NCBI GenBank assembly: GCA_001783715.1
Contig: MFNF01000017.1
Span: 19,366 to 83,365 of the forward strand
Length of the DNA: 64,000 nt
Origin: Candidatus Lambdaproteobacteria bacterium RIFOXYD2_FULL_56_26
GTDB lineage: Bacteria > SAR324 > XYD2-FULL-50-16
Direction: 5' to 3'
Below, one piece after another: positions 6,686 through 49,989 of the stretch (positions within the stretch are counted from its first letter, which is position 1; each line of letters opens with the position of its first letter). The notes beneath the pieces were generated by a model. The model saw only the letters and a list, made by a program, of their open reading frames with translations, ran no database searches and was not told the DNA's origin. Made by a program: the position numbers and the translations under genes.

Positions 6686-6772
6686 GCCGGTCAAGCTGAA
6701 GGGGCTGACTGGGGGCCAAGAGCAGGACTCTTTGGCCGGTTCCTTTACCCCCGTCGCCAGTGACGTTTGGGG

Positions 6773-13672: not shown

Positions 13673-14337
13673 GGGACCAGTCGGCGGATGATCCGTTCGG
13701 CTGCTTCTTCGTCGATCAGGGTAAACCGTTTCCACCCTTCGTCCAGGGCATAAACATCCGCCTTGGCGATGTCGAACCACCAGCCGTGAACCCCCAGGGT
13801 GCCTTCTTCCAGTCTTTTTTTGACCGCCGGGTAAGACTTAACGTGCTCCATTTGCAGCAGCACGTTGAGTTGGGAAAGCTGGTTGTGCTTGGCCAGGGTG
13901 GGGTCTAGGGCGATCCCTGCGGCCAATTGTTGCACCGCTTCATCCCCATGCCGGAGCCAGCTTTTGAGGTTCGGGTACTTCACCTTGTTCCGGTTGTCGA
14001 TCAAGGCCTTCATGGCGGCACATTCGGAATGGCCGCAAACCACAATGTTCTGGACCGACAGGCTTTCAACCGAATACTCGATGGCCGCCGCTTCGGACTC
14101 ATCGCTGCTCGAAACTCCGTCTTGACCGCAAGGGGGGACCAGATTGCCGACGTTGCGCAACACAAAGAGGTCTCCAGGGTCGGTGGACGCAAAGGTGTTG
14201 GGCACCACCCGGCTGTCCGAACAGGCGATAAAAAGTGTGTCCGGCGACTGGCCGGTGGCCAACCGGCCAAAAGCTTCCCGGTAGCCTTCTTGGACGTTGC
14301 GGCGAAACTCTACGATCCCTTGGATCAGCTTTTTCAC
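13669..14337 (-). CDS. beta-class carbonic anhydrase
   Basis: Zinc ligand motifs CSDSR and HSECAAM (HxxC); 222 aa, typical of beta-CA. Confidence 0.88.
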   Translation of the reverse strand: MKKLIQGIVEFRRNVQEGYREAFGRLATGQSPDTLFIACSDSRVVPNTFASTDPGDLFVLRNVGNLVPPCGQDGVSSSDESEAAAIEYSVESLSVQNIVVCGHSECAAMKALIDNRNKVKYPNLKSWLRHGDEAVQQLAAGIALDPTLAKHNQLSQLNVLLQMEHVKSYPAVKKRLEEGTLGVHGWWFDIAKADVYALDEGWKRFTLIDEEAAERIIRRLVP

Positions 14338-14895
14338 AAAACCAAACGGAACAGGATTGCGGTGGAATTACTGCCACCAGGGACTGGTGCCTTGGGTGTA
14401 GCCTCGTTTTGAAACCTGGGTAAGGCTATAGGTCCGGTGGATCGGTTGTCAAGGTGGGGTCCTGGTCGAGTCGGGCGGGCCTTTTGGGGGCTTTTGGGTT
14501 CACTTGGGGGGGAAATGCTCTTCTCCTAAAAAGTGAGGGTCAAAATCAAAGGACAGTCCAGCGGACAACAACCCACCGACCGAGGCCAGCTGGACACCGT
14601 CTTGCGGCTCTACCAAGAGGCCTTCTCTTACCTTTGATAGGAGCAGACAATACTTCTGTTCTGCAAATTACCAATACCAAGAATGGCAGCGGGCCGTTAA
14701 CGAACAGGCGATTTCCAAAGCGGAAATAATATCTGCTCTGATGAAAACATTGGTGGTGCAGAAGGGGGAATGCAGCCTCAAAAACCTGCGCCCAAGAGTG
14801 CGGAACTTTTTCCTGGGGCTTTCAGCAGTTGACAGGTTGAAACACATTGCCCAAAGTTCGGGACGGTTTTTGTTTTTCTTTGGAGAGGGGGGAGG

Positions 14896-21285: not shown

Positions 21286-21486
21286 TCAAGGTTCCAAAGA
21301 CTTTTTGGCCTTTTTTTCCGCCCGCTGTTGGGAATAACCTACCACCACCAAAAAAACGAAGGCAGCCATCAACCCAAAGGCAACAAAAAAAACGGTCAGG
21401 TAAAAGGTACCAAACAACAAAAACTGGATGACTTCCATGGGGGCCAGGGAGAAACGCCCACAAGAGGGCATTAAAAAAGGGTCCAA
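21286..21486 (-). CDS. small 2-TM membrane protein with charged C-terminus (holin-like topology)
   Basis: 66 aa; hydrophobic segments FLLFGTFYLTVFFVAFGLMAAFVFLVVVGY; C-terminal RAEKKAKKSLEP. The start codon lies inside the fibre-2 terminator stem, so coding status is uncertain. Confidence 0.3.
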   Translation of the reverse strand: MDPFLMPSCGRFSLAPMEVIQFLLFGTFYLTVFFVAFGLMAAFVFLVVVGYSQQRAEKKAKKSLEP

Positions 21487-21514
21487 GGTAGAGTCTGAAC
21501 CCTACCTTGGACCC
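21473..21514 (-). terminator. rho-independent terminator after tail-fibre gene 2
   Basis: 13-bp perfect stem gggtccaaggtag / ctaccttggaccc with a 10-nt loop. On the minus strand it is followed by a U6 tract (complement of aaaaaa 21473-21478). Confidence 0.7.
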
Positions 21515-21600
21515 TCGCTTTCTGCCAAGAGGAATGTCTTTGTAAGGGACGGACGGTTTGGGTTACAAAGCCTACCGCCCAACCTCGGTTTTACCTAACT

Positions 21601-23031
21601 TTAAAACTCGGCATCCAAAGCAATCCAGGCGTAGTTACTGCCGGATTTCAGGAAACAAGGTTCGTTGATGTTGTAATCGTTGCCGGCACTGAATTCCATT
21701 ACTACTGAAACCAAATTTCCAACATTTGCATAGGCTGAAAGCAAGGACACGTTGTAGGAAACATAGTTGTTGTCCGAAGGCCTCCGAGAGTATCCCTGCC
21801 AAGTACCGCCATATGTCAAGTGGGGTAAGAAGAGTCTCATCGGCACCGGGGTAGAGAAGACCCCTTGGAAGGATAACCCGGAAGCAGACATGGCCCTGCA
21901 CAAAGCGACCTTGGTTTCTGGAAAGGTGGAGAAGCGGAAGTAAAAGGCTTGGGCCAATCGTAACTCCTCTTTGGCACACCGGAGATCAATCAAGGTTGCT
22001 ACCGGTCCTTCTTCAAGCTGCATCTGGCCCAGTTTGACCAGACCCCCGGCACCCAAGGAGCCGTCCGGCAAGACCAAAGCGAATTCCAATCCGTTCTCTA
22101 GGCCCGTGAAGGCAGAAAGATCAATCGTGGCCTTGACTTTGGTCCAAGTTGCAGGGGGGCAAGGTTGCAGAGCCTTGGTGGTATTGGCATTAAAGGCAAC
22201 AAAGGTGTCTTCCACGGTCGGGGTACAGTAGCGGATCGAAGGGGTGAAACTGCTGGCTCCGCCGTTGTAAATCCAGGCGGAATAGGTGGCCAACCCGCGG
22301 ATCATCGGGGTCATGGAGGCCTCGATTCGTTGCAGTACCTCAACCGTAGTCAGCCCGGTGGCACCGGTGAGCTGCATCAGGTACCGGCTTTTGCCGTTGG
22401 GCGGGTAGCCTGCCACCCGGTCAACCGTGACCGATGCCCCAAATGCAGTAATCATAAACCGGTCAGCCGCATATGCAGTAGTTGCGGTAAAAGTGGTCCC
22501 CCGTTGCCAAATGTCCAGGTTACCGTTGATCAGGACGTTTTTGAACCCCTGGGTCCGCTCCAACCTGGGGTTGCTCCGAGGGGCCAGGAAGTGGGCAAAG
22601 GGAGTGGTTCCGGGGGCGAGGATAGGGTCGTTGCCGGGGAGAGTAGCTTGGTAGTAGCCGGTGTAAAGTACCGGAAAAAGGTTGGAAGCATGGGCCAAGG
22701 CATTGTAGCCTTGGAGGGTGATTTTTTCGATCAGCCCGGTGTTGAGGTTGGCAAACCAAAGTTCGTGGGTGCTGCTGATGGTGACGGCCGTGTCGGCAAA
22801 GCTTTGGGTGGTCAAGGCTCCGGTGACAGGTTCATAAAACTCGACCACTAGATTTTTGAGCTGTCCTGAAATCGAATCATACTCACCTTCCAAGAGCCTA
22901 GTCTGGCTGTTGAGGCTGCTCAGGACCTGGGAAAGGATGTGGTAGCTGCGATAAAAGGGGCCGTCCCAGGTTTCGCTCCCTGGCTCGCTGTAACAAAGAC
23001 CTAAAGAGTCCATTTTTTCGGTAAACGCCAT
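21601..23031 (-). CDS. phage tail fibre-like protein, paralog 2
   Basis: 476 aa. The N-terminus (SEPGSETWDGPFYRSYHILSQVLSSLN) is near-identical to the next gene. A conserved mid-block (APRSNPRLERTQGFKNVLINGNLDIWQRG) is followed by a diverged C-terminal part. Position immediately after gpJ/gpI-like genes. Confidence 0.55.
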   Translation of the reverse strand: MAFTEKMDSLGLCYSEPGSETWDGPFYRSYHILSQVLSSLNSQTRLLEGEYDSISGQLKNLVVEFYEPVTGALTTQSFADTAVTISSTHELWFANLNTGLIEKITLQGYNALAHASNLFPVLYTGYYQATLPGNDPILAPGTTPFAHFLAPRSNPRLERTQGFKNVLINGNLDIWQRGTTFTATTAYAADRFMITAFGASVTVDRVAGYPPNGKSRYLMQLTGATGLTTVEVLQRIEASMTPMIRGLATYSAWIYNGGASSFTPSIRYCTPTVEDTFVAFNANTTKALQPCPPATWTKVKATIDLSAFTGLENGLEFALVLPDGSLGAGGLVKLGQMQLEEGPVATLIDLRCAKEELRLAQAFYFRFSTFPETKVALCRAMSASGLSFQGVFSTPVPMRLFLPHLTYGGTWQGYSRRPSDNNYVSYNVSLLSAYANVGNLVSVVMEFSAGNDYNINEPCFLKSGSNYAWIALDAEF

Positions 23032-23152
23032 CTGTGCCTCGTGGGGAATAAAGGAAAGGGAAAAGGAGTCATGGATCGGTTATTCCCCTTTTGATTCAAA
23101 AACGGCAGAGGGAAGGGATTCCGATCCCAGAGAAGGGGCAGACAACCGGGAG

Positions 23153-23182
23153 GAGAAAACAGGGCCTTTGGCAAAGGCCCTG
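23153..23182 (-). terminator. rho-independent terminator after tail-fibre gene 1
   Basis: Palindrome cagggcctttg-g-caaaggccctg just past the stop codon, followed on the minus strand by UUUUCUC. Confidence 0.55.
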
Positions 23183-23190
23183 GAGAGAGG

Positions 23191-24645
23191 TTAAAAGTCG
23201 CCTAAGATCCAAATATTCTCTTCAATCATGTAATAATAAGAAGCAGAGGGGACAGCACTAGTGGCATCGAAAAAGAGCATGGCACTGTAAAGCGTAATAT
23301 GTGACAAACTGGGATTGCTGAGTTGTATTGAACCGACAGAAAACCAAGTGATGGTTTCAGTTCCCGACTGCATTACGCTGAGAGCCGTGTTCGCCTTGGG
23401 CACTTGAAATCTTACATCTGCATAACAGACAGTGCCATCGAAGCCGTTAATGTGAGTCATGGCTGCGACTTTTTCCATGTACCGCTGGCAGAGCACCAGT
23501 TCTTCCTGCTCATTGCGAAATTCAAAGCCGGTGGGGATGGAGCCGACCTCCAGCTGCACCTGAGAAAGGGCAAAGTTGTTTAAGGTCCCCGCTTGGTTGA
23601 CTTGGTTTGCCGTACCGTACACCTGAGCGCCCGACCAACTGTCTTTGGCCCCCTGCCAATTGGAGCCGATCACCAAGGCCCAGTTGACTCGCAACCCAAC
23701 CACGCCGGGGCTGGTCAACCAGGAGGAAACTTGGTCGTCAAAGCGCAAGGTGATGGATTTTTTCTCCCAGCTGTTGGCGGCTTGGATGCTGTATTCGGCC
23801 AAGTAACTTCGGGTGCCGTCATGGTTGAGGAAAGAAACGCTGTAAGTCCCAGGGACTCCTGACCGGACCCAAAAGCTTAAGGTCAGTTCCTGGCCCAACA
23901 AAACCCTGGACAAGTGTCCTTCGATCCGTTGGCTGATAAAACAAAGAGAGTCCGGGGTGGAAGCCAGGGACGCATTGTTTTGGACGGTGGCCACATCGGT
24001 TTGAAAGCAATTTTTGGAATGGACCCCACTTTGGGAAGGCGTAGGAGGATTGTTTTCTAGGGCCACATTATAGACCGCCGTGCAAGTGGGATTGTTGTAA
24101 AAATACCAACGGTCCGCAGTGTACTGTGCCCCGCCGACCCCAAGAAAACTGGACCCTCGCTGCCAAATGTCAAAGTTTCCGTTCATAATCAGGTTCTTAA
24201 AATGCCGCTGTTTTTCCATCCTGGGGTTGGTCCTGGGGGCCAGGAGCTCGGCGAAGGGGGTCCGGGTTGCACCGGCGGATTGGTAAAAACCTGTGTAAAG
24301 TAAGGGAAATTTGTTGAGCTGATGGGAAACCGATTGGTAGTTGTCCAAGGTCTGTTTGGCGATTTGCCCGGTCAGGCTGTCGGCGTACCAAAGTTCCGGC
24401 AGGTCGGAGATGGTGACCCCCAGGTCCGGGAAAGCCATGCGGGTGAGGCTGTTGGCGGTAGGATTAAAAAACTCCACTTCGATGCCTTTGAGCAAACCAG
24501 TGGTGTCCGTAAGGGATTGATACTCCCCTTTGGTCAACCTAGATTGACCGTTGAGGTTGCTCAAAACGTGAGAAAGAATGTGATAAGACCGGTAAAAAGG
24601 TCCGTCCCAGGTCTCGCTGCCCGGTTCGCCAAACTGCAGTCCCAA
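23191..24645 (-). CDS. phage tail fibre-like protein, paralog 1
   Basis: 484 aa. Shares the N-terminal anchor block (EPGSETWDGPFYRSYHILSHVLSNLN) and the mid-block (APRTNPRMEKQRHFKNLIMNGNFDIWQRG) with 21601..23031. The distal part is diverged. Confidence 0.55.
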   Translation of the reverse strand: MGLQFGEPGSETWDGPFYRSYHILSHVLSNLNGQSRLTKGEYQSLTDTTGLLKGIEVEFFNPTANSLTRMAFPDLGVTISDLPELWYADSLTGQIAKQTLDNYQSVSHQLNKFPLLYTGFYQSAGATRTPFAELLAPRTNPRMEKQRHFKNLIMNGNFDIWQRGSSFLGVGGAQYTADRWYFYNNPTCTAVYNVALENNPPTPSQSGVHSKNCFQTDVATVQNNASLASTPDSLCFISQRIEGHLSRVLLGQELTLSFWVRSGVPGTYSVSFLNHDGTRSYLAEYSIQAANSWEKKSITLRFDDQVSSWLTSPGVVGLRVNWALVIGSNWQGAKDSWSGAQVYGTANQVNQAGTLNNFALSQVQLEVGSIPTGFEFRNEQEELVLCQRYMEKVAAMTHINGFDGTVCYADVRFQVPKANTALSVMQSGTETITWFSVGSIQLSNPSLSHITLYSAMLFFDATSAVPSASYYYMIEENIWILGDF

Positions 24646-24791
24646 AGGGTTGTTTTTTCGGTAAAGGCCATTTTGTTTCTCCTAGAGAGGGGTGATTTAA
24701 CTTCACCGATCTCACCGCACTTTTTGGTGTTTCATTAGCCGGAAAGCATTCCAAAATCACCAATTCAACCACTTTTTTAGCCCCGCTAGGC

Positions 24792-24830
24792 AAAAAAAAG
24801 CCCCGTCTCCTGGCCGTAAGGAGACGGGGC
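24792..24830 (-). terminator. strong rho-independent terminator between the gpI-like gene and the tail-fibre genes
   Basis: Perfect 11-bp GC-rich stem gccccgtctcc / ggagacggggc with a 9-nt loop, followed on the minus strand by U8 (complement of aaaaaaaa 24792-24799). Confidence 0.8.
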
Positions 24831-24849
24831 CGATTTAAAAAAAGGACTT

Positions 24850-25446
24850 TTAATGTCCCAAAAAAAACCAGCCTAGAGGCGAGACCCCCAACCCAACGGT
24901 TTTGGGTTCAGGTGGGTGGGCCAAGGCGTAGGCGGTTTCGGCCAGGGTTCGGCCCAGCTTTACCCGGCCCAGGCCGCCGGGCAGCCTGGGGTAAAGGATG
25001 TCGCTGCTGAATTTGCACCTCGCCGGGGAGATGTGCAGGATGTACTGGGTGATCAGGTTCATGTCGTTGGCCCCTGGGTCCAGACGGATCCGCAAACATT
25101 GGGGACCATAGAGTTCCCGGTACGGAAAGGTCGGGGACCTCAGGTCGATCCACTCGAAGTAGGAAAGCCCAAACAGGGTCTGGACCGCTTGCAGGGACCG
25201 GAGGGTCCCAAAATCTTGGGCTAAAATCTCATACCCTTGGATGTATTCCCGCTTGGACTGGTTCAATTCGGCGGGCCGGTTGGGCAGTTCCTCCCACCAC
25301 TGGTCAACCGCCGTGCCGGGCATGCTGTTGAAGTGAACCCAATCGGCAATTTGGTTCACCTTTTCCGTCATCAGCCCCCAACAAACTTCTTTGAGTTTGT
25401 ACAAGTGCAAAACCGGGGGGCTTTGCAACCACCATTTTGTAATCAT
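24850..25446 (-). CDS. phage tail protein I-like (P2 gpI / Mu gp48 family) baseplate protein
   Basis: 198 aa. WWEELPNRPAELNQSKREYIQGYEILAQDFGTLRSLQAV resembles the conserved W..W..kR..I...h..kGT core of Tail_P2_I. Located directly after baseplate J as in P2/Mu. Confidence 0.4.
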   Translation of the reverse strand: MITKWWLQSPPVLHLYKLKEVCWGLMTEKVNQIADWVHFNSMPGTAVDQWWEELPNRPAELNQSKREYIQGYEILAQDFGTLRSLQAVQTLFGLSYFEWIDLRSPTFPYRELYGPQCLRIRLDPGANDMNLITQYILHISPARCKFSSDILYPRLPGGLGRVKLGRTLAETAYALAHPPEPKTVGLGVSPLGWFFLGH

Positions 25447-25458
25447 CTCTGGCTCTTG

Positions 25459-26544
25459 TTAAGGAAGGATTGTAACCGTAGGGGAAAAATACTTGCCGAG
25501 CGGCAAAACGGCCGTTTCCGGGGTCAGGTGAATCGGGCTGCCCACCAATTCGGGCACATTGCGGTAAAGGTGATAGACCAACAGGGATTCATCGAAGTTT
25601 TGCCCTCTGGGCATACCGGCGAAATAAGTGTTCACTTGGTCCAATACTTTGGTTTCCAGGGCCAGGGGATGGGGGACAAAAAGTTGGATCGTCAAATTGA
25701 GGGTCTCGGAGCTGGCCAATTCCACTACCGCCAAGTCGGTGGCCATCAAAACCGATTCCAAGGCCACCAATGCATCGGCAGCGAGGTTAGAGTTGAGTCC
25801 GGCACCATAAAGGGTAAAATGGAGGGTAGCGGTAACCGGGTCCACCGAATCCAAAAGGGCAAATTCCACCTCCGGCACCGACAAAAGGGCCGCTTGGTAC
25901 TTGGCTTCAATCCCATAATCCAGGCTTTGGCTCCATTTTTTGTTTAAGATTCGGGTTCGTAGCTCCAGGTCGGTTTCCACGTCCGTTCCGGCGATTGCAG
26001 CAGCGAAGTTGGTAACGGTCAAAACGTTCAGGCCACCACTCACTTGGGTGATCTGGTTGTTGAGCAGGTTGTACTTTTGCCCGATTTCCAGCGCCTCTAC
26101 TAGGATGTCGCAGTTGGTGGTCGGAGCATCAAAACTGTAATTTTGTACAGGGACATAGGTCCGAGGGTTGGCCTCAAACACCGAAAAAAGAAGGTCGGTG
26201 GTGATCTCCAAAGGACTGGCGTTGGTCTTGGTGACCCGGACCCAAAGGCGGGCCTTGGCCCCCAGGCTACGGGTCAGGTCATAATCGGTGGCAAACCGCT
26301 CCAACCAAGTCCCGGTAGCGGAGCTGACGAACAGTTGGGGCAATAGGGCCTCTACGGCCTGCAAAAAAAGCCGGTAAGGTTCCTTAAAAAGAATCATCAA
26401 CAGGTTAAAAAAAACCGAGTTTTTGGTTATGGCGGCGTTCTCAAAGAGCGTCCCCACCGAGGCCTCCTTGATTTTGGTCTCCATGGCCGTGTCGTCGGCT
26501 AGGTTGATCTCTGCCATCATCTTTGAAAGCGTAGCTGCATCCAT
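25459..26544 (-). CDS. baseplate J-like protein (gpJ / gp47 / gp6 family)
   Basis: 361 aa. Size, position (after gp25/spike, before gpI and fibres) and overall pattern are consistent with Baseplate_J. Family membership not verified by search. Confidence 0.5.
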   Translation of the reverse strand: MDAATLSKMMAEINLADDTAMETKIKEASVGTLFENAAITKNSVFFNLLMILFKEPYRLFLQAVEALLPQLFVSSATGTWLERFATDYDLTRSLGAKARLWVRVTKTNASPLEITTDLLFSVFEANPRTYVPVQNYSFDAPTTNCDILVEALEIGQKYNLLNNQITQVSGGLNVLTVTNFAAAIAGTDVETDLELRTRILNKKWSQSLDYGIEAKYQAALLSVPEVEFALLDSVDPVTATLHFTLYGAGLNSNLAADALVALESVLMATDLAVVELASSETLNLTIQLFVPHPLALETKVLDQVNTYFAGMPRGQNFDESLLVYHLYRNVPELVGSPIHLTPETAVLPLGKYFSPTVTILP

Positions 26545-26634: not shown

Positions 26635-26874
26635 TCAGCTGACCAGGGTAGAAGTGAAGGTCCCGGTGACCGGCCCCGAAGGACTGGTTCCGGTGATGGT
26701 CCCTGTGACCACTGCCTTTTTGACCTCCAGAACGATCAGGTTGATCAAGTCCTTGAGGTCCTGAGGGGCCACCGCCTGCTCGCCGTAGCGGCTTTGCAGC
26801 AGACTTTGGAATTGGGTGGCAATGCCGTTTGAATCCATGGCCATGGCGGTCCTATTTTTGGGTGGTTTTGCCAA
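26635..26874 (-). CDS. small hypothetical protein in the baseplate module (79 aa)
   Basis: Gly/Thr-rich C-terminus VVTGTITGTSPSGPVTGTFTSTLVS. Overlaps the spike gene 3' end; the true start may be an internal Met at about 26844. Could be a PAAR-like tip or plug, but no PAAR motif was recognised. Confidence 0.3.
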   Translation of the reverse strand: MAKPPKNRTAMAMDSNGIATQFQSLLQSRYGEQAVAPQDLKDLINLIVLEVKKAVVTGTITGTSPSGPVTGTFTSTLVS

Positions 26875-27445
26875 GTTTAACGTTAGATTTGATCAAGTCG
26901 TAGTTGTTTTTCAGGTTGGCTAGGTTTTGTTGCACCGTGGCAAGATTGGCCAGGGGGCTGCCCAGGTTCCCGGCTTGGCCCAACAGTTCAATGGCATCCA
27001 TAATCCCGGTCAAGAGATCACAAAGCTTGTTGGCCAAGACGGCAAAATCCTCTCCCGAACCGATTTCAATTTGGTCGGCTCCCTCTAAACGCAGAACCCC
27101 GGATTTTTGCTGCACCTCTTGCCCTTCGGGCATCAAGGCCAACAGCACCGCCTGGTTCATTCGCCAGTAGGGAAAAGCCAAAAGGCAAAGGTCGCCGGGC
27201 CTTGGGGGGTCAAAAATATGCCGGGAGACCCGATGCAGCGGAATCTGGGTCAAAGTGTTCAGGCCGGGCAAAGCCGTAAAGTCCCCGGCCAAAAGCTGAA
27301 CGTCGCAGCAGGCGTAAGGGGTCGCCTTGGAATGTTTCCCGGCGGCTTCATAGACCTTTTGCACTTTGGCGTAATACAGGTGCTGGTAGCCCCCCAAGCC
27401 CGGAAAGGCACGGAGTACCAGCTTTTTAAGATCCTTGAGCAGCAT
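26852..27445 (-). CDS. baseplate spike protein, gpV / Mu gp45-like (Phage_base_V OB-fold)
   Basis: YAKVQKVYEAAGK...VQLL...FDPPRPGDLCLLAFPYWRMNQAVLLALMP matches the gpV pattern (W.PP.vGeqVlvlf.gGd...gvvlg..y). C-terminal coiled-coil-like segment. Confidence 0.45.
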   Translation of the reverse strand: MLLKDLKKLVLRAFPGLGGYQHLYYAKVQKVYEAAGKHSKATPYACCDVQLLAGDFTALPGLNTLTQIPLHRVSRHIFDPPRPGDLCLLAFPYWRMNQAVLLALMPEGQEVQQKSGVLRLEGADQIEIGSGEDFAVLANKLCDLLTGIMDAIELLGQAGNLGSPLANLATVQQNLANLKNNYDLIKSNVKLGKTTQK

Positions 27446-27779
27446 ACAGCAGGTCCTCGAAGTACAGGGTCAAACTCTTGCCGGAGTCGTAGGAAAGCTC
27501 CAGCCGGAGATCCAATTTGGAGCCTTGGAGTTGGTGCTTGATGCTGCCGACCCGAATCTCCGGGTGAGACATTTCCAAACTGAACATCAGCTGGGTGGCG
27601 ATCAACTCGGCCTCTTCCGGTTCGGCACCAAAAAAAAGTCGGGCCAAGGGACTGTCCATCAAGGCAAGCTGGATCGATTGGGTCAAAGCGCCTTCTCCAG
27701 TCACCAGCAAAGGTTCGGCAAATTCATCGAGTTGAAAACCCAGAGAGACCGGGTCCCATTTAAGGTCGAGCAGGGTCAT
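27426..27779 (-). CDS. gp25 / gpW-like baseplate wedge protein (GPW_gp25 family)
   Basis: 117 aa. ALTQSIQLALMDSPLARLFFGAEP ... ELIATQLMFSLEMSHPEIRV parallels P2 gpW ISQSIGDILRTPVGSRVMRRDYG ... ELQIKVACYMAVLKWEPRV. Confidence 0.55.
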   Translation of the reverse strand: MTLLDLKWDPVSLGFQLDEFAEPLLVTGEGALTQSIQLALMDSPLARLFFGAEPEEAELIATQLMFSLEMSHPEIRVGSIKHQLQGSKLDLRLELSYDSGKSLTLYFEDLLYAAQGS

Positions 27780-27809
27780 GTCGTTGTTTGGTGTGAGGTT
27801 GGGGGGAAT

Positions 27810-28508
27810 CTACAAACCGGAGTAGCTGGCAAAGCGTAGGCACATGGTGCCGGTCGAGGACCGGTAGCTAACCTTGTCGAGTACCTCGGTCTTTCCTGCC
27901 CAAACAACGGGGAGGTAAGGGATCAGCCCACACAAGGGGGCCAACTCCGGTCCTTCCTCCAAGTTTGCCACTAGGTCCGAGACCGGCAAGGGGACCGGCT
28001 CAACCGGGAAATGCCCTTGTTCGAGCAGAACCAACCTTTTGGCAGCCGGGTCGAGGTACCAACGGCTGGCACCCAAAGAGTAGATCTCTTGGAGTTGGTC
28101 CAGGCCGTTGCGCAGGCTCCCCAAGACTACTAGGCTTTCCACTTGGGAGGAGGGCACGGAGAGTTGGGAGGTAAAGCCAAGCCTTGCTTCGGCGGCAAGC
28201 GTCTTGAAGGCCTGGAGGTAGTTTTTTTGACTGATCTGCCGCCGGACCTGGGTCTCCAAAAGGCCGTGCAAGAGGCCGACCGCAAAACATTCAAAATGAA
28301 GCCCATCGGGCGATTTGACGGCAGTAACCTGTACCTCGCCGCAGGAAAAAACCTGGGTTCCCTCACCGAGGGCCAGTAAAAAGGGCTTGGAAGGATCGAT
28401 CGGTTCTTCCACCGCAAAATTCACCACACAGGGCCGCTGCCGCTCCAGGACAAGTTCAAACTCAACGGTTTGGAACGCCTGGGTTTGGTTGGAGAGCGTG
28501 ATCAACAT
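27810..28508 (-). CDS. hypothetical tail/baseplate protein (232 aa), possibly hub (gpD/gp44-like) component
   Basis: Position between the tape-measure-position gene and gp25. No motif recognised. Confidence 0.35.
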   Translation of the reverse strand: MLITLSNQTQAFQTVEFELVLERQRPCVVNFAVEEPIDPSKPFLLALGEGTQVFSCGEVQVTAVKSPDGLHFECFAVGLLHGLLETQVRRQISQKNYLQAFKTLAAEARLGFTSQLSVPSSQVESLVVLGSLRNGLDQLQEIYSLGASRWYLDPAAKRLVLLEQGHFPVEPVPLPVSDLVANLEEGPELAPLCGLIPYLPVVWAGKTEVLDKVSYRSSTGTMCLRFASYSGL

Positions 28509-28537
28509 AACAGGAACCTTTGGGGCTAAATAACGGT

Positions 28538-29245
28538 TTAGGCCTGATTTCTGGCGGCCACAAGGGAAAGGGCGGCGTTTTCGGGATTTACCTCGACCAC
28601 CCTAGGCATTCCGCTTTTGATCAACTTCTTTTGGGTTTCGTTCAGGTAAGGGACCATTTCCAAGGTCACGGTGGCCCGGTCTGCGCCAAGCTCCAGCCGC
28701 CGGTTTTTTAAGGTCACATACTGGACCCCCAATGCCCTGGTGTAGGGGTGGAGAATCTCGTAGTAATGGCCATCAAAAAAGAACCGATGGAAACTGGCCA
28801 ACCGGCTTTCCAAGGAAAAAATCTCCCCTTCGTTTGATTCGGATTCCCCCAGGGAGCCATAAAGCCAAGCCTCGACCTGAAGCAGGGTATGGCTCAGGTG
28901 TTGCGGACCGGTCTTTTGGCTGCTTTCTAGGATCGAAAGAATCCGGCCAAAAACAAAACTTTCCAGTTCGATCGCCAAACGACTGCTGGCGGAAACGGTG
29001 GCACCGATTCTTTCGGTGGCCTTTTGGCCAAAGGCGGCGATGCTGGCGAGCAGGTCTGCCTTTGGGTCCCGGGCGGCTTTGGGCTGGCTTGGAGCAAGGG
29101 TTTGGGTCAAACCTTGGGTGACCAAGGGATTCTCCACCAGCTTGCGAAGCACCAGGGGACTCTCGGAGGTGCGGTTGGTGTTTTGTTTCATGTGGTTCCT
29201 AAAAAGTTTGGTGGCTTCGACCTGATGATCGAGGCTGGGTCCCAC
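28538..29245 (-). CDS. hypothetical tail/baseplate protein (235 aa)
   Basis: Co-oriented and tightly spaced within the tail module. No motif recognised. Confidence 0.35.
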   Translation of the reverse strand: MGPSLDHQVEATKLFRNHMKQNTNRTSESPLVLRKLVENPLVTQGLTQTLAPSQPKAARDPKADLLASIAAFGQKATERIGATVSASSRLAIELESFVFGRILSILESSQKTGPQHLSHTLLQVEAWLYGSLGESESNEGEIFSLESRLASFHRFFFDGHYYEILHPYTRALGVQYVTLKNRRLELGADRATVTLEMVPYLNETQKKLIKSGMPRVVEVNPENAALSLVAARNQA

Positions 29246-29259
29246 CCAAAGTGGTGGGG

Positions 29260-30282
29260 CTAACCGGCCTGGGCTGCGGTTTGGGGCGTAATGCCCCCTT
29301 CCAATTTATAGTTGAAGGTTTGTTGGTTATAAACCTTGTGCTGGTGCTGGTGAATCTCTTGGACCAACTTGGGTTCCTGGGTCCTTCGTAGGTGCCCCGC
29401 CGTAGGTTTTCCCGGAACAAAGGTCCAGGGTTTTTGGCCTGCTGCGGTTCCCGTTCTTTGGGAGCTTTGGCCGGGTCTTACATTCCCGGTTTGGTTTGCT
29501 CCCTTGGCCGGGGAATAAATCTGCGAAAACTCCGGCGAGCCGGTCAGAGTAAACACCCCAAAGCCTGGGGGGAAAACAGACAACCCAACCGTGGCGGGTT
29601 GGCCATTCATGGGCAAAAAACTCTTGGCGAGCGAAGGACCGGGTGGCAGGTTCAACGGGAAAAGTCCCCCAATCCTTGGGCACCGGTCTGCTTGCATTGG
29701 CAGCTCTCTCGGGGCCGGGGTTGCCAAAGGGGCGAATGTTTCTTGCGGCCAAGGCTCCACCAAGCGGGGGTGAACTGGGTCCGGTACCGGAGACAGGGCC
29801 TCCGGTCGGGCCGAGAGCAGCTCCGGTTTTGGGAACCCCAATGGCAGATGCTTGGAGCAATCCAAGACCGGTTTTTTCCCAGGAAGGGCCTGGTCCCCTA
29901 CCCCCAAAACCTGCTCTTGGGGCATTGCCTTTTGGGGCTCTCTTTGGGGGACCGAAGCGGGGCTCGCCCAGGGGGTCTGGATTGAGGCCTTGGGGGTGTG
30001 GTTAAAAATCCTGGGGAGCAACACCGCCGCTTGTGGCTGGGATACAAGTTTTGGGGCGGCAGGAAACCCCTTTTGTCCTTTGGGGGCCACAAACAGTGGG
30101 GGTTCCCACAACTCGACCCAGGGGCTTTCTCCGAGCCTCCCAACCTCCGGCAAAGGCCAAACCTCCGACCAAACCGGGTCCGGAAAAATCGGCAACCACA
30201 AAGCCATTTGGGCCATAAAAGCTTCCATCACCTGGGCCAAGGTGGACTCTAAAATCGGGCCAGAATCAAGCGTTCCTTCCAT
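29260..30282 (-). CDS. Pro-rich low-complexity protein (340 aa) in the tape-measure position
   Basis: Longest frame in a region where both strands carry overlapping ORFs, which is typical of low-complexity high-GC DNA. About 20% Pro, predicted disordered. Located where Mu/P2-type clusters encode the tape measure. Confidence 0.35.
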   Translation of the reverse strand: MEGTLDSGPILESTLAQVMEAFMAQMALWLPIFPDPVWSEVWPLPEVGRLGESPWVELWEPPLFVAPKGQKGFPAAPKLVSQPQAAVLLPRIFNHTPKASIQTPWASPASVPQREPQKAMPQEQVLGVGDQALPGKKPVLDCSKHLPLGFPKPELLSARPEALSPVPDPVHPRLVEPWPQETFAPLATPAPRELPMQADRCPRIGGLFPLNLPPGPSLAKSFLPMNGQPATVGLSVFPPGFGVFTLTGSPEFSQIYSPAKGANQTGNVRPGQSSQRTGTAAGQKPWTFVPGKPTAGHLRRTQEPKLVQEIHQHQHKVYNQQTFNYKLEGGITPQTAAQAG

Positions 30283-30445
30283 AGGGCCTAGAGGTTAAAG
30301 AGGAGTTCACGAAGTGCGGATTTGTCCCTTTCTTCAAAGTGTAAGGCCAATGCGGCGGCCAGAAGAAAGGCTTCCTCGTCCAGTTGATTGGGATCGGCGG
30401 CAAGCCGGTGACGTAAAATCAGACCATTCAAGACCTCGACTTCAT

Positions 30446-30778
30446 TCAAACGCCGGTCTTGAGCTCGCCGATAATAGCCTGATTCCCCGCTAAAAAAGGA
30501 GCGAGCCGCAAAATGAGGTTGAGTTCCAAGGTGAAGTTCGTCGGGTCGTTTAAAAGTCGGACCAAGTCATTTTTCTGTTCCGGAACAACACAAAGCAAAA
30601 GCCATTTGCGGGCGGTTTCGATCCGTTTGAGTTCTCCGGCATAATAATCGGCGGCAAACTCAGCCACTTGAAGCCGGGTGAAGCCAAAGCGGAACTCAAA
30701 GTTTTCTTCCAAAAAGCGCACCGGAAGAACGGCGTTTCGGCAATGCATCATCACATTGCTTTCGGAAGTTGGGTTCAT
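30446..30778 (-). CDS. small protein (110 aa), possible tail assembly chaperone (gpE / gp41-like position)
   Basis: Between the tube gene and the tape-measure-position gene. No motif recognised. Confidence 0.3.
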   Translation of the reverse strand: MNPTSESNVMMHCRNAVLPVRFLEENFEFRFGFTRLQVAEFAADYYAGELKRIETARKWLLLCVVPEQKNDLVRLLNDPTNFTLELNLILRLAPFLAGNQAIIGELKTGV

Positions 30779-30936
30779 GGTGTCTCAAGTTGCAGCTGTA
30801 AAAAAGGGTTTGCCCAAGGGGAGGCAGGCCCTCCCCCAGGGGGCCGAGGGGAAGTCCCTCGGCCAGGGCCCGGACCAAGGTACCTTGGTCCGGGTAGGAA
30901 CCGAAGCCCATTGAGGGGACGTTCGGCCCAAAAGCC

Positions 30937-31374
30937 CTAGATGCCGCCTTTGATGGGCGGGCGTACCACCGAAACCCCGTTGACCAAAACATCGCCAGGC
31001 AAGATGGGCAATTCAAACTCAACGGCACCGCCGTTGAGTTTGTTGAGGTCGGGCAACTTGAACATCACCCGAACATTTTTCAAGGTGACCACAAAAGGCT
31101 CTTCGCCTGCGGGGCTGATGTCGAAGTTGATGAACGGAATCGGGGCGATGTCCTGCCAAGAACCGGCGGTTTTTGCCATGTTGGCGAAATGTTTCACCGT
31201 TTCTGCTTTGAGCAGGATGCTTCCCTTGGGGTCCACCCAACTTTTGGAGACCACCCCTTTTTCGATTTTGATGTAATCGGGGATCTCCAGTTTGATGGCG
31301 GTTGCGGTAATCATCTCGCCGTCGGAACTGATGATCCTCAAATCATAAGCGTCATATGCCGTTGCTCCAGCCAT
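30937..31374 (-). CDS. phage tail tube protein-like
   Basis: 145 aa, immediately downstream of the sheath gene with a 15-nt gap. Size and position typical of contractile-tail tube proteins. Confidence 0.45.
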   Translation of the reverse strand: MAGATAYDAYDLRIISSDGEMITATAIKLEIPDYIKIEKGVVSKSWVDPKGSILLKAETVKHFANMAKTAGSWQDIAPIPFINFDISPAGEEPFVVTLKNVRVMFKLPDLNKLNGGAVEFELPILPGDVLVNGVSVVRPPIKGGI

Positions 31375-31389
31375 TCTTGTCTCCTAAGG

Positions 31390-32685
31390 TTAGATTTGGT
31401 TGATCAGTTCGATCGTCGAGTCCACCACCTTGATGCGGTTGACATCGGTAAGGGTGAAGAGGATGGAAATTCCCCCGGTGATCCAAGCGGTCGAAAGACT
31501 GTAGTCAAACAGCTCGCGGCTTTTGCCCGGAACCGGCTTTTTCATTTCTTCCAAACCCCGAGCGGCGATCTGAGCGGCCGCCATGGCCCCGCTGGCATCT
31601 TTGTTGAACTGGTTGGAGTTGATCAGGGGGAAGGCATAAAACAAGATGCCCCGCTTGGCCTTGTTGACCACCCGCCGTTGGGCCAAGGTAGTGACGGTAT
31701 CGGTGACCGAGTGCATGACCAAGTCGTCGTTGACGTAAACCGCCGAGGGATCTTCCACAAACCGTTTGAGGAACAGGCCCCGCCCTTCGTCTAGAACCAC
31801 GTATTGGGAATGGCCATAGCGGCTGTCGGTGGAAACCCCGACCATTGAACCATCGAGCACCTTGCCCAAAGAGGATTGGACTGGAATCCGAGCCAACCGA
31901 CCTCCAATGGCACCCATCCACTTGTCTTGGGTGGTCGGAGCCAAAATAGCCACCGAGCTGGAAGCAAAGGTCAAAAACTCGGCCTTAAAATTGGCGGCAT
32001 AAGAAGTGGGGGTTTCCTCCACTTTGTCACCGGCACCCCAAGTGTGGGCCACAGAGGACAAAGTGATGCCGATGGTCCCGGCGTTGGCATCCACCGAAGC
32101 GATGGGGTGCAGCCCAGCGAAGGGATTGGAACCTTGGATTTCAACGGTTTGTCCGACTTTGAGGTCGTGGCCCACACCGATGGTTAAGGTCAACTCGGTC
32201 GGAACGGTGGTAAAGTCGGCCGTCCCGGTTTGAGCCACATGGTAGGCTTTGCGGTACTGGATCACTGCCTCGAAGTACTGCTTTTGCGCTTCTTGGGCAG
32301 CGATGGCGCTACCCAGAGCATCGGCAAAAGCCAGATCCGCTGGGGACAGGAAGAACAGGGTGGAAACCTGATGGTTGGCTGCCAAATCGGCGATTTGGGC
32401 GGCCAAATTTGCGGCAATCAACTGGCCGGGAGCAACCAAGTAAACAACAGCCCAAAAGTTGGAGTTGCCGTTTGCCTGGGCGGTTTGAAGCTCAGAGATC
32501 AATGAGGCGCTACCGGCGAAGGTAGCCGAAAGGTCGGAGGTAAGGTCGATCACATACATTCCGGTCATGCTGGGGTGCTCGGCAAAATAGGCCTGTTTGA
32601 ACTCTTGGCCTTGGGGTGCCGATGCTCCGCCGGAGGTGATCTCTTGCAGGGTGATTCCGGTAACGGTCATTGGGTTTTTCTCCAA
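31390..32685 (-). CDS. phage tail sheath protein-like
   Basis: 431 aa; largest structural protein at the head of the module, followed by the tube gene. C-terminal ...ILFTLTDVNRIKVVDSTIELINQI. Assignment by context and size. Confidence 0.5.
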   Translation of the reverse strand: MEKNPMTVTGITLQEITSGGASAPQGQEFKQAYFAEHPSMTGMYVIDLTSDLSATFAGSASLISELQTAQANGNSNFWAVVYLVAPGQLIAANLAAQIADLAANHQVSTLFFLSPADLAFADALGSAIAAQEAQKQYFEAVIQYRKAYHVAQTGTADFTTVPTELTLTIGVGHDLKVGQTVEIQGSNPFAGLHPIASVDANAGTIGITLSSVAHTWGAGDKVEETPTSYAANFKAEFLTFASSSVAILAPTTQDKWMGAIGGRLARIPVQSSLGKVLDGSMVGVSTDSRYGHSQYVVLDEGRGLFLKRFVEDPSAVYVNDDLVMHSVTDTVTTLAQRRVVNKAKRGILFYAFPLINSNQFNKDASGAMAAAQIAARGLEEMKKPVPGKSRELFDYSLSTAWITGGISILFTLTDVNRIKVVDSTIELINQI

Positions 32686-32784
32686 TTGAGGGTTGTTGTT
32701 GGTTCACAAAGTGGAACCGGACGAAAGGGGGAAGAGAGGCCCCCCGGCCTATCAAAGCTTCCTTTTTAACCGGAAAAGGAGCGC

Positions 32785-33219
32785 TTAAATTCCAATCAGA
32801 TCCTCCCGCTCCAAAGCTTTGTATTCGACTCCCTTGTAGAAAATTCGGCTGTCTGCAGGGATCGAAGCCAGTTCTTCGGGAAGAATCAAACTCCAGCTCA
32901 GCCGCTCGACCAGCCGGAGCAAAAAGACGACCTTCAGGTGCAGCGAATCGACCTCGGTGGCGCTTTGGGAAAAACTTTCTCCAAGATGCCCATAAAGGGC
33001 GAACCATTCCTTGACCAACAAACTTAGGCTCAAGTGGTCTCGGGTTTTGTGGACCGGGTTGATTTCCAACTTGACCTGGTAAAGTTGGTCGATTTGTTTG
33101 GGGGTGGCACCGACCTCATAACCTTGGGTCTCTACGGACAAAATTAAAGGGACAAAGCTGGGGGCGGTGACCCCCGAATTGGCCACCAAGAAGTCAATCA
33201 AACTTTGGGCACGTTGCAT
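32785..33219 (-). CDS. hypothetical protein, first gene of the tail-like module (possibly DUF4255-like or tail completion)
   Basis: 144 aa. IDQLYQVKLEINPVHKTRDH loosely resembles the DUF4255 LfLYdirEN..lR block. Weak. Confidence 0.3.
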   Translation of the reverse strand: MQRAQSLIDFLVANSGVTAPSFVPLILSVETQGYEVGATPKQIDQLYQVKLEINPVHKTRDHLSLSLLVKEWFALYGHLGESFSQSATEVDSLHLKVVFLLRLVERLSWSLILPEELASIPADSRIFYKGVEYKALEREDLIGI

Positions 33220-35642: not shown

Positions 35643-37022
35643 CTATCCCACCGAGGCGTTGGTGGAGATGAAGGTGTGAAAGGGCAACCGCTTGATGTAG
35701 TGAAACATGTAAAGGGAGGAAACCACAAAGGTCAAAACACAGGCGAGGTAATAACCCACCCCATAATACTTGAAACCGTAGCTGAAGGAAATGAAGGTAA
35801 AGGCGGCGTTGGACAGTAAAAACAACCCCTGCAAGCCCATGTAAGCCCGCCTACAGTCAAAGTAAGAAAGAATAATGTTGATAAACAAGGTCATCACCTG
35901 GAAAAAACTACCCAAAACCCCAAACCGGTAGATGCTGATCTGCATATAGTTGACCCCGAAAGCGGTAAAGAACTTGGAGGCCATCAGGATAAAGATCAGG
36001 CTGATCGCCCCTTGGACCACCAAAAAGTTCCTTGAACTCCTCAAAATGGAAAGCAGAATGTTCTCGTGGTTTTCCTTGATCTCGCTCAGCGAGGCCTTGT
36101 GCTGAATGTCCCGGTAAAACTTAAGGTAAGCTTCAAAAAAATTGGTTTCCACCGACATGATAAACATCGCCATGGAGGGAACAATGCTCAGGTAAGCCAG
36201 GAACATGGCGCTGTCGTAGTTGGGGTACAAAAAGAGGTGGGTCGGGCTGTGGTCGCTTTCGGGGGCCTGCCACATGATCCACTTGTCCACCCAGGAAGCG
36301 CTGTTGTAGGTCACCCCCGAAAGGGCCACCTCCCAATACTTTTTGAAATACCCCATAAAGGCAAAAGGCTCCTTGAACCGGTAGGGGTATTCCGCCAAGA
36401 CCCGGGCCACCAAAAGGGCCACGGTCAAACAAAGCCCCAGACTGAAGGCGGACAAAATCCCGATCAGGTCAAAGAGGTCCACCAAAAACGCCGAAGTCAG
36501 CGCCGAAAAGCCCATCCCGGTCCCAAAGGCCAGCAGTACACTTTTGTAATCCTTGATGGCGGTCACAAACACCGACAAAAGCCAGATCTCCGAAATTAGG
36601 ATGAAATTGACGATCGCCGCCAAGGCTAGGCCAGTGCTGATTTGGGCATAAAAGAAGTAAAAGGCCGAGGCCAGCGGCAGTTGGGTGCCGATGATCAGGG
36701 CCGTTCCGCCGATCAGAAGCCCCGGAGTACCTTCCACATCCTTGCGGTAAATGGCATCGGCCAGATAACGGGTGACCACCATAAACACCGGAGCCGAGAA
36801 AACCAGGGAGAAGGAAAAGTTGTAGATGATCACCCGCCGAAATTCCGAGAGGGTCTCGACGGTGGTGAATTTCCCGGCTAGGTAGCTGATGCTGCCCAAG
36901 GAGATGATGGTGAACATCCAAGGGCCGGTGGAGATCAGGGCCGAATAGGCGTAGGCCTGGAACAGCCCCGAAAGGTCGTCTCGCTTGGAAAGTTTGCGTA
37001 GCACAAAGCCAATTCCGGCCAT
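35643..37022 (-). CDS. pelG: Pel polysaccharide biosynthesis membrane protein PelG
   Basis: N-terminus MAGIGFVLRKL...GLFQAYAYSALISTGPW matches the PelG start as recalled. 459 aa, about 12 TM helices. Confidence 0.7.
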   Translation of the reverse strand: MAGIGFVLRKLSKRDDLSGLFQAYAYSALISTGPWMFTIISLGSISYLAGKFTTVETLSEFRRVIIYNFSFSLVFSAPVFMVVTRYLADAIYRKDVEGTPGLLIGGTALIIGTQLPLASAFYFFYAQISTGLALAAIVNFILISEIWLLSVFVTAIKDYKSVLLAFGTGMGFSALTSAFLVDLFDLIGILSAFSLGLCLTVALLVARVLAEYPYRFKEPFAFMGYFKKYWEVALSGVTYNSASWVDKWIMWQAPESDHSPTHLFLYPNYDSAMFLAYLSIVPSMAMFIMSVETNFFEAYLKFYRDIQHKASLSEIKENHENILLSILRSSRNFLVVQGAISLIFILMASKFFTAFGVNYMQISIYRFGVLGSFFQVMTLFINIILSYFDCRRAYMGLQGLFLLSNAAFTFISFSYGFKYYGVGYYLACVLTFVVSSLYMFHYIKRLPFHTFISTNASVG

Positions 37023-41323: not shown

Positions 41324-41335
41324 AGGGCCAAAGGC

Positions 41336-47764: not shown

Positions 47765-47768
47765 TTCC

Positions 47769-48629
47769 TCAACGAGGTTCAGGGATGACTTTGTCTAGGG
47801 CGATGGTTGAGACGTAAGGGTTAAAGCCGTTGTTGCGCTGTTCCTGGTAGATCCGTTTGATTCCTTCCCGGTCTTTGGGGTCCCAGTAGTCCAAGGTATA
47901 GACCTGGAGTTTAGGGTACCGTTTTTGTGCATCCTTGAGAATCCGTAGTTGTTCTTGGTAAAGGGCCTTAGGGACCAGCCGGTAGGTTTGGGTCGAAAAA
48001 TCGTAGTCCCCAAAGACGGATTCCCCCAAGACCATGTCCACATATCCTCCCCCTTGCTCATAAAGGTCGTAGCCTCGGTTGAGCATCACCGGCAGGTTGG
48101 GGTAGTGGGTGCGAATGGCCAAAAGCAGGTTGACCGCCGCTTGGGTCATGCCTTTGTAGGCAGCCGGATCGGTCCTCTCCAGGTGCCCCGGATTGTCCAT
48201 GGTGTCCAAAAACAGCCCGTCAAAGCCCTGGTGCAGAATCGCCGGGATCAGGTCTTCAATCACCCGACGGACCCACCGGGGGGCCCTGACATCCACAAAA
48301 TAGCTGCCTTTCCAGTTCCGGTTTTCCATCAACAAAATCCCCTCCGCCCGGACTTCATTGTAGTAGGGCCGGTCCTTCTCCACTTCCCCCAGGCTCAGGT
48401 AACCCAAAAGCAGCTTTTTTTGCGTTTTTAAGGTTTCCAAAGAGGGGTGGTAGTGGCTGTCGAGGACCAGCAGGGAATAGGGGGCCAGTTCCTCCAAGGT
48501 AGGTTGGTCCGAATAGGTGACCGCCCACTTGGGAGAAGCTCCATACCCTAGCCTCAGAAACCCGACCAATAGCAGGAAGAAAAGCGAAACCGGCCGCAAC
48601 AGGTTCATTTGCCTCCTAGAGGGGACCAT
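47769..48629 (-). CDS. secreted glycoside hydrolase family 114-like protein (PelA hydrolase-domain-like)
   Basis: Signal peptide. YSLLVLDSHYHPS...LLLGYLSLGEVEKDRPYY...SYFVDVRAPRWVRRVIEDLIPAILHQGFDGLFLDTMD matches the GH114/TM1410 pattern. 4-nt gap to the deacetylase gene. Confidence 0.55.
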   Translation of the reverse strand: MVPSRRQMNLLRPVSLFFLLLVGFLRLGYGASPKWAVTYSDQPTLEELAPYSLLVLDSHYHPSLETLKTQKKLLLGYLSLGEVEKDRPYYNEVRAEGILLMENRNWKGSYFVDVRAPRWVRRVIEDLIPAILHQGFDGLFLDTMDNPGHLERTDPAAYKGMTQAAVNLLLAIRTHYPNLPVMLNRGYDLYEQGGGYVDMVLGESVFGDYDFSTQTYRLVPKALYQEQLRILKDAQKRYPKLQVYTLDYWDPKDREGIKRIYQEQRNNGFNPYVSTIALDKVIPEPR

Positions 48630-49949: not shown

Positions 49950-49989
49950 GCCTCAGAACTCTGAAAAGTGGGGGGAATGTACCCCTAGT

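Follow-up and report, generated by a model that had tools for sequence, protein, structure and literature searches.

In phages Mu and P1, the tail-fibre genes have a constant 5′ part and C-termini that are switched by inversion of a DNA segment (S/S′ on the G-segment of Mu, inverted by Gin, and the C-segment of P1), and one fibre type is present per particle. The R-type tailocins, among them the R-pyocins, carotovoricin Er and the Rp tailocins of Pseudomonas, are headless contractile tails encoded in the chromosome, and the C-terminus of their fibre sets the target. A third group is formed by phages with two receptor-binding proteins (RBPs), such as K1-5 and SP6 with two tailspikes, KP32, G7C and CBA120, in which the two RBPs usually form a branched arrangement: the second has an N-terminus unlike that of the first and is attached by it either to an adaptor or to the first RBP itself. 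Two independent RBPs have been described as “not uncommon” in phages (PMC11990801). Here we analyzed two adjacent genes, termed fibre A and fibre B, in a 64,000-nucleotide (nt) stretch of Candidatus Lambdaproteobacteria bacterium RIFOXYD2_FULL_56_26 (contig MFNF01000017.1; the whole stretch is called the window). Both genes form the distal end of a minus-strand Mu-type contractile-tail cluster of ~11.7 kb (21.5–33.2 kb). We favor, with moderate confidence, the reading that they encode alternative receptor-binding fibres for one headless Mu-type contractile particle from a tailocin-like chromosomal island, and that they arose by an old tandem duplication after which the distal parts diverged.

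As in Mu and P1, where the arrangement gives two host ranges, a constant N-terminal part read as the attachment part is combined with alternative C-terminal parts read as receptor-binding. As in the Mu tail, the sheath is of the DUF2586 type and gpJ/gpI-like wedge genes lie directly before the fibre gene. Unlike in Mu, the two genes here are complete and co-oriented and are not accompanied by U/U′ chaperone genes. A search for an invertible segment at the fibre locus returned only the terminator hairpins and short chance pairs as inverted repeats, and none of the open reading frames (ORFs) scanned near the locus encodes a resolvase or invertase. With complete, co-oriented genes, no flanking repeats and no invertase among the ORFs scanned, the locus does not fit a switch of the kind known from the Mu G-segment, the P1 C-segment and carotovoricin. 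The R-type tailocins share with this locus a headless chromosomal cluster between housekeeping genes with the fibre gene or genes at its distal end. They differ from it in that the tail predicted here is Mu-like rather than P2-like, has an atypical tape-measure slot and no detected fibre chaperone, and has two full-length fibres separated by a terminator. The dual-RBP phages likewise carry two receptor-binding genes side by side, with a wider or alternative host range; unlike in those phages, both fibres here have the same adapter, implying competition for one site.

Paralogous tail fibres with a variable C-terminal tip

Fibre A and fibre B share 36% identity and 51% positives over 397 amino acids (aa) in BLASTP (E 2e-64), a paralogy that extends well beyond any short low-complexity stretch. 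When identity was counted per 40-column bin of a global alignment, it reached 80% in the first 40 columns, 43–48% up to column 200 and 10–30% beyond, with a small peak at a QLE.G....EEL.L.Q motif near residue 390. The N-terminal block by which the initial annotation had recognized the pair, EPGSETWDGPFYRSYHILS[HQ]VLS[NS]LN, is present verbatim in both proteins, and both also contain the conserved mid-block it had described, APR[TS]NPR[ML]E....FKN....NGN[FL]DIWQRG. It had further described the proteins as strongly diverged elsewhere, including their distal C-terminal halves. The C-terminal tip is indeed the most variable part, but homology and the predicted fold reach to about residue 390; it is the last fifth (~90–110 aa of both fibres), not the whole distal half, that is unalignable and without detectable sequence similarity. 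Serial half-fibres of the T4 gp34–37 type are ruled out, since the two proteins agree in their N-terminal adapter and in their general architecture.

Synonymous sites in the conserved N-terminal block are saturated between fibre A and fibre B. This rules out recent gene conversion as the source of the block and indicates that selection at the protein level has maintained it ever since the duplication, which is old. The ortholog of fibre B (P0003), located on a relative with 80% identity (L005), shows 75% protein identity to fibre B and a ratio of nonsynonymous to synonymous substitution rates (dN/dS) of 0.16. Considered by part, dN/dS was 0.13 in the adapter and jelly roll, while the last 106 residues had 55% identity with a dN of 0.41 and a saturated dS. 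The tip is therefore the most variable part in the comparison with the ortholog as well as between the two paralogs.

The phrog_4492 profile, named “tail fiber protein”, matched both proteins in a search with PHROG hidden Markov models (fibre A, aa 133–400, E 8.8e-47; fibre B, aa 152–475, E 7.7e-30). A Pfam scan of both fibres returned no family, and a sequence search of the PDB with both gave chance matches only (E ≥ 0.29). The ~340-aa C-terminal module has 451 database homologs and carries the signature N.IINGxFxIWQRG ... TLSFWVK ... VQLE.GS.AT.FE.R....EL.LCQRYY ... A.AEL. With tblastn, the module was found in 87 phage genomes (cyanophages, HMO-2011, Methylophilales phages and Pseudomonas putida podophages), where it is mostly annotated as tail fibre. 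Modules of the phrog_4492 type are joined to several N-termini, including the T7 tail-fibre domain PF03906, the tail-collar domain PF12571 and PF18338. In fibres of cyanophages, pelagiphages and Pseudomonas podophages, for example those of Synechococcus phage S-B28 and Puniceispirillum phage HMO-2011, the homologous C-terminal module follows an N-terminus of the PF03906, the PF12571 or another type, whereas the fibres described here have a separate, rare adapter.

AlphaFold2 (AF2) models of fibre A and fibre B had a predicted local distance difference test score (pLDDT) of 79.9 and 77.0, respectively, with values above 90 across the jelly roll. Both models begin with a beta-rich part, which a linker connects to the jelly roll, and continue with a short helix at LCQRY and a C-terminal beta domain. 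Foldseek related the jelly roll to the carbohydrate-binding module (CBM) families CBM4-2, CBM16, CBM11 and CBM22 at a target-normalized TM-score (TMt) of about 0.7 (0.68–0.74 for CBM4-2 and CBM16). In a structural search of BFVD with the same program, the whole ~350-residue module resembled predicted phage tail fibres (E 1e-26 to 3e-35; query-normalized TM-score, TMq, about 0.6). The two proteins combine the family profile, the CBM-like jelly roll and a distal position in a tail/baseplate cluster, as a phrog_4492-like tail fibre does. Together with the matches to annotated phage fibres and to predicted fibre structures, this makes their identity as tail fibres, proposed in the initial annotation, solid.

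A rare adapter joined to unrelated C-termini

The N-terminal adapter (~150 aa) is rare. An exhaustive HMMER search with residues 1–163 of fibre B through 1.84 billion representative proteins found 13 proteins that contain it. Their C-termini are mutually unrelated (tail-collar-like and Gly/His-rich, of CBM type, and others), and in one protein the domain is internal. At the loci for which gene context was available, the adapter gene starts 0–30 nt past the gpI-like gene of a DUF2586-sheath cluster, or overlaps it (L006, L007, L008, L009, L010, L013, L014/15 and L016). A profile search for the adapter found nothing in genome contigs and viral contigs and only the already known 2.5-kb contig among metagenome contigs, and a search with a gpJ alignment recovered three genome loci. 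The pattern proposed at the outset, a conserved baseplate-attachment domain with alternative receptor-binding parts, thus recurs among the relatives, in which the adapter always directly follows a gpI-like gene and is joined to unrelated C-termini. Such an adapter could offer a defined site at which receptor-binding modules are exchanged on Mu-type tails.

One relative contains a comparable tandem pair. In the metagenome-assembled genome (MAG) TamC13-09 (L006, JAVVEA010000011.1, 4760..13546), two adjacent adapter fibres of 461 and 473 aa are 59% identical, with nearly all of their divergence after the C.RY motif. The two are closer to each other than to fibre A or fibre B, which indicates that this small lineage has undergone tandem duplication followed by tip divergence on at least two occasions. 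The same locus also contains duplicated gpJ/gpI genes, a third adapter fibre (483 aa) and a Phage_tail_APC chaperone, and contig 9 of the same MAG (L009) carries a second, compact headless island. In another, phage-like relative (L007), the fibre region comprises a 586-aa adapter fibre and two ORFs of 146 and 474 aa, and a resolvase/invertase gene (14167..14781) lies just downstream of it. Fibre switching by inversion may therefore occur in parts of the lineage.

Terminators around both genes and a frameshift in fibre A

The initial annotation described a terminator after each fibre gene and a strong one between these genes and the baseplate operon. All three hairpins (T1, T2 and T3; Table 1) were confirmed, and T3 and T1 rank first and second in stability among all hairpin-plus-T-run sites on both strands of the window. 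T2 and T3 are kept in the relative L005 although the adjoining non-coding DNA is not; the stem changes in L005 are loop-proximal or compatible with G-U pairing (the latter in T3). Similar terminator signals are present elsewhere in the genome, for example after rpmE. A scan of 21–34 kb with Rfam gave nothing above threshold, and its sub-threshold match to tfoR is the T3 hairpin. T2 is probably leaky, judging from its tail of four T, which makes read-through into fibre B plausible.

The gap of 178 nt between gpI and fibre A, with a strong terminator inside, sets this locus apart from nine relatives in which gpI and the fibre gene are tightly coupled, and the uncoupling is therefore derived. Directly 5′ of the fibre B ATG, ~70 nt (23032..~23100) are about 92% conserved in L005, while the distal spacer is poorly conserved; this hints at a candidate leader or a promoter of a non-sigma-70 type. 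The block is repeated neither upstream of fibre A nor elsewhere in the window, and the two spacers have no promoter-like motif in common. From this layout, the initial annotation had suggested independent or differential expression of the two fibres. The terminators behind that suggestion are real and two of them are conserved, but neither spacer has a sigma-70-like promoter or a motif shared with the other, and T2 has a weak T-tail. On the sequence evidence, separate expression of the fibres is plausible, although the lesion in fibre A described below complicates this reading. The uncoupling may mean that the fibres have promoters of their own, that their dosage is controlled by attenuated read-through, or that they are silenced.

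The leader of fibre A contains a lesion. Upstream of the TTG from which fibre A was called (24645), we noticed the sequence GGAGA-N6-ATG (ATG 24671..24669), which encodes MAFTEK one base out of the fibre A frame. The same MAFTEK start is found in fibre B and in P0122, and distant members keep related starts (P0121: MPFTNRINPLGL). Without a shift, translation from this ATG reaches a stop (TGA 24563..24561) after 36 codons. A −1 shift in the run of six A (A6, 24658..24653), or one extra A, yields MAFTEK-NNP-LGLQFGEPGSETW, and the N-terminus restored in this way is exactly collinear with MAFTEK-MDS-LGLCYSEPGSETW of fibre B and resembles that of P0121 (MPFTNRINPLGLAFGEPGSENW). TTG 24645 has no Shine-Dalgarno (SD) sequence and lies inside the 36-codon ORF; it is probably not the ancestral start. 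A fibre A protein would be expected to yield MAFTEKNNPLGL, a shifted product MAFTEKNNPLGLQFGEPGSETWDGPFYR, and a product started at the TTG an N-terminus at GLQFGEPGSETWDGPFYR or GLQFGEPG.

The window can be compared with several assemblies of the same or closely related organisms. A 21.4-kb part of it is identical to contig MFNC01000066.1 from the MAG of Candidatus Lambdaproteobacteria bacterium RIFOXYD1_FULL (GCA_001781945.1), contigs in two further assemblies are identical to the window, and a fourth assembly (L001) is 99.5% identical. The run is A6 in all four assemblies, including the L001 strain, and A7 in none, which argues that the lesion is not a one-off assembly error. An exact-pattern scan of metagenome contigs for leader variants with A5 to A8 gave 0 matches in a collection that lacks even the known contigs. 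The simplest reading of these sequences is a fixed A7-to-A6 slippage mutation. Fibre A may then be poorly expressed or truncated, starting at the SD-less TTG minus nine conserved residues, or its synthesis may depend on rare slippage events. There is no support for programmed frameshifting: the A6 run is not phased as an X XXY YYZ heptamer in the ATG frame, and the 93 nt downstream of it fold no better than shuffled sequences (z −0.04).

The lesion gives real weight to a rival explanation in which fibre B is the one working fibre and fibre A, with a frameshift and a strong terminator in front of it, is a decaying duplicate, leaving a single specificity. Such decay would fit an SD-preceded ATG that leads to a stop after 36 codons, a TTG without SD inside that short ORF, an A6 run in every assembly and the lack of a stimulatory RNA structure past it. 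It would also fit the state of fibre B, which is intact and under purifying selection, with an ATG start, GAGG at −5 and a conserved leader. We nevertheless consider this explanation unlikely. The 484-codon frame of fibre A is otherwise intact and is closer to the family consensus than fibre B, the fibre A proteins of the two strains differ by a single amino acid, gene calls for fibre A are present in all sources, and a TTG-started protein minus nine residues could still assemble.

In the comparison with L001, we also observed that single-nucleotide polymorphisms are clustered. Ten fall in codons 225–245 of fibre B (22297..22358), eight of them synonymous, seven fall at the 3′ end of the gpI-like gene, within its 60 final codons (24850..25032), six of them non-synonymous, and fibre A contains only one. 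These clusters look like short recombination tracts.

Alternatively, fibre A could be phase-variable or recoded, through slippage of the run, either between A6 and A7 during replication or by −1 during transcription or translation, and could provide, together with the terminators, a bet-hedging mix of targets. The restoration of a start collinear with fibre B by a −1 shift or an extra A, the preservation of SD and ATG, and the 95% identity of the first 19 nt of both genes would be in line with this. Against it, a run of six A is generally short for efficient slippage and is not phased as a slippery heptamer, the fold expected downstream was not found, and no assembly has the A7 form. We therefore regard it as highly improbable. 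A further extension, in which a domesticated headless Mu-type particle has its two adapter-sharing fibre genes cut from the baseplate operon, each with a terminator of its own, and one of them gated by a reversible homopolymer frameshift, giving stochastic target spectra within a clone, is a similarly long shot; if true, a homopolymer-gated fibre would be a form of tailocin phase variation without an invertase.

The headless tail island and the case for two fibres

The host organism is an uncultured groundwater bacterium, and the island is chromosomal, lying between host genes. In order, it encodes a 144-aa protein, the DUF2586 / phrog_907 sheath, the tube, a 110-aa chaperone-like protein and a 340-aa protein at the tape-measure position, then proteins of 235, 232, 117, 197 (phrog_4011, baseplate) and 79 aa, Baseplate_J (361 aa), the gpI-like protein (198 aa), fibre A and fibre B. 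Pfam and PHROG scans of the window found no capsid/head, terminase, portal or integrase gene. Sheath, tube, baseplate and fibres are present without genes for head, packaging, replication or integration, as in R-type tailocins, with an atypical tape-measure slot; a lysis cassette and a dedicated regulator were not found in or beside the island. By gene content, the cluster is a headless Mu-type contractile-tail island that is tailocin-like. An extracellular contractile injection system of the Afp/PVC type is ruled out by the Mu-like sheath (DUF2586 / phrog_907) and by the lack of ATPase and cargo genes in the island.

The slot of the tape measure holds a Pro/Gln-rich protein, whereas phage-like relatives have PhageMin_Tail tape measures of 610–680 aa at the same position. 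The tail may be short or atypical. In L009, the closest compact island, the slot is occupied by a 364-aa ORF (6451..7545), and the only feature it has in common with the 340-aa protein is a C-terminal motif, ..Y.QQ....(L/V).GG.

These gene contents bear on another rival explanation, namely that the 11.7-kb island is an inert remnant, a Mu-like prophage tail module that is not assembled, with the fibres and terminators as functionless residue. A remnant would account for the head, terminase, integrase, lysis and regulator genes not found in 64 kb, for a Pro-rich protein without family match where a tape measure is expected, and for the frameshift in fibre A. We consider it quite improbable, since none of the ~13 tail ORFs is truncated and their order matches that in relatives, purifying selection acts on fibre B, and the terminator hairpins are conserved while the flanking non-coding sequence is not. 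In addition, the island in L009 is likewise compact and headless and also has a short protein where a tape measure is expected, which suggests a maintained design and not random decay.

If the two genes do encode alternative fibres for one particle, the ~150-aa adapter, which is under purifying selection, would dock on the gpJ/gpI-like wedge, the CBM4/CBM16-like jelly roll would, judging from its modelled fold, bind a surface glycan, and the fast-evolving C-terminal beta domain of ~100 aa would be the distal specificity tip. With a common adapter, the two copies would be rivals for one set of sites on the baseplate, and the outcome may be mixed particles or two kinds of particle that recognize different cell surfaces. 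The terminator spacers that split the fibre genes from the baseplate operon probably uncouple fibre dosage from that of the other tail proteins, by way of read-through at the terminators or of promoters that belong to the fibre genes. On the same reading, fibre A has lost one A of an A7 run after its start and is likely made at a low level, from the TTG minus its first nine residues, or only upon occasional slippage; the main fibre is probably B.

Several points weigh against this picture. The A6 lesion, which is fixed in two strains, weakens the idea of two specificities on one particle, and only one fibre may be functional. Docking of the adapter on the wedge is inferred from synteny and from the baseplates of P2, Mu and R-pyocins, and in both AF2 monomer models the adapter region has low-to-moderate confidence (pLDDT 33–86). 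No sigma-70-like promoter was found in either fibre spacer, and no lysis (holin/endolysin) or regulator gene matched Pfam or PHROG in or beside the island; with no such matches, the island could be the inert remains of a prophage. The 340-aa protein at the tape-measure position has no Pfam or PHROG match either, which makes assembly competence uncertain.

Modular fibres, duplicated RBPs and tailocin-like islands are already known, and the current understanding of them is unchanged. What is new here is their occurrence in a poorly known lineage, the rare adapter family, the derived uncoupling of gpI and fibre, and the fibre A frameshift. If both fibres are made, a compact island of ~12 kb in an uncultured groundwater lineage would place two target specificities on one chassis, with the terminator-bracketed layout and the 5′ homopolymer lesion as small hints on how fibre dosage or choice is controlled. 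The coordinates of the features are listed in Table 1.

Table 1 Features of the fibre locus and of the surrounding tail island (window numbering).
Feature	Position	Strand	Remarks
Fibre A ORF, called from TTG, 484 aa	23191..24645	-	phrog_4492, BLASTP, AF2
Fibre A, adapter, aa 1–~140	24226..24645	-	
Fibre A, CBM4-like jelly roll and helix, aa ~148–390	23476..24204	-	
Fibre A, variable C-terminal beta domain, aa 391–484	23194..23475	-	
Fibre B ORF, ATG start, 476 aa	21601..23031	-	phrog_4492, AF2, dN/dS against ortholog
Fibre B, adapter, aa 1–~150	22582..23031	-	
Fibre B, jelly roll and helix, aa ~162–362	21946..22548	-	
Fibre B, variable C-terminal beta domain, aa 363–476	21604..21945	-	
Terminator T1	24799..24831	-	19 nt after gpI stop; 13-bp perfect stem, T8; folding free energy (dG) -26.5 kcal/mol, z -5.2; 0/200 shuffles as stable
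Terminator T2	23160..23182	-	9 nt after fibre A stop; 10-bp stem, 3-nt loop, TTTT only; dG -16.5 kcal/mol, z -4.1
Terminator T3	21477..21516	-	85 nt after fibre B stop; 18-bp stem, T6; dG -35.9 kcal/mol, z -7.6; marks end of tail island
Spacer/5′ leader of fibre A	24646..24798	-	Holds SD, ATG 24671..24669 and A6 run 24658..24653
Spacer upstream of fibre B	23032..23159	-	GAGG 5 nt before ATG; candidate promoter or leader
gpI-like baseplate wedge gene	24850..25446	-	Presumed docking partner of fibre adapter
gpJ-like baseplate wedge gene	25459..26544	-	Pfam Baseplate_J; presumed docking partner of fibre adapter
Remaining tail genes, 144-aa through 79-aa proteins	26635..33219	-	Pfam/PHROG matches and synteny
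Tape-measure slot, 340-aa protein	29260..30282	-	
Small ORF, 61–66 aa	21286..21486	-	
Pel exopolysaccharide operon	35643..51825		

One flank of the island encodes DUF790, a PHP phosphatase, FtsK-4TM, Rho, ribosomal protein L31, RF1, carbonic anhydrase and SHMT, and the other encodes Pcm, a universal stress protein, the Pel polysaccharide operon and two-component or c-di-GMP signalling genes. Between fibre B and the DUF790 gene, a small ORF with hydrophobic stretches starts within or just after T3. It is a gene call in public annotations, and this unassigned 66-aa membrane ORF is the sole candidate for a lysis gene, although a holin-like role is pure speculation. The Pel operon, 2.4 kb away from the island, encodes PelG, a PelF-like glycosyltransferase, TPR proteins and a GH114 PelA-like protein. 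It is unrelated to the fibres, apart from the fact that their receptors are likely to be surface glycans.

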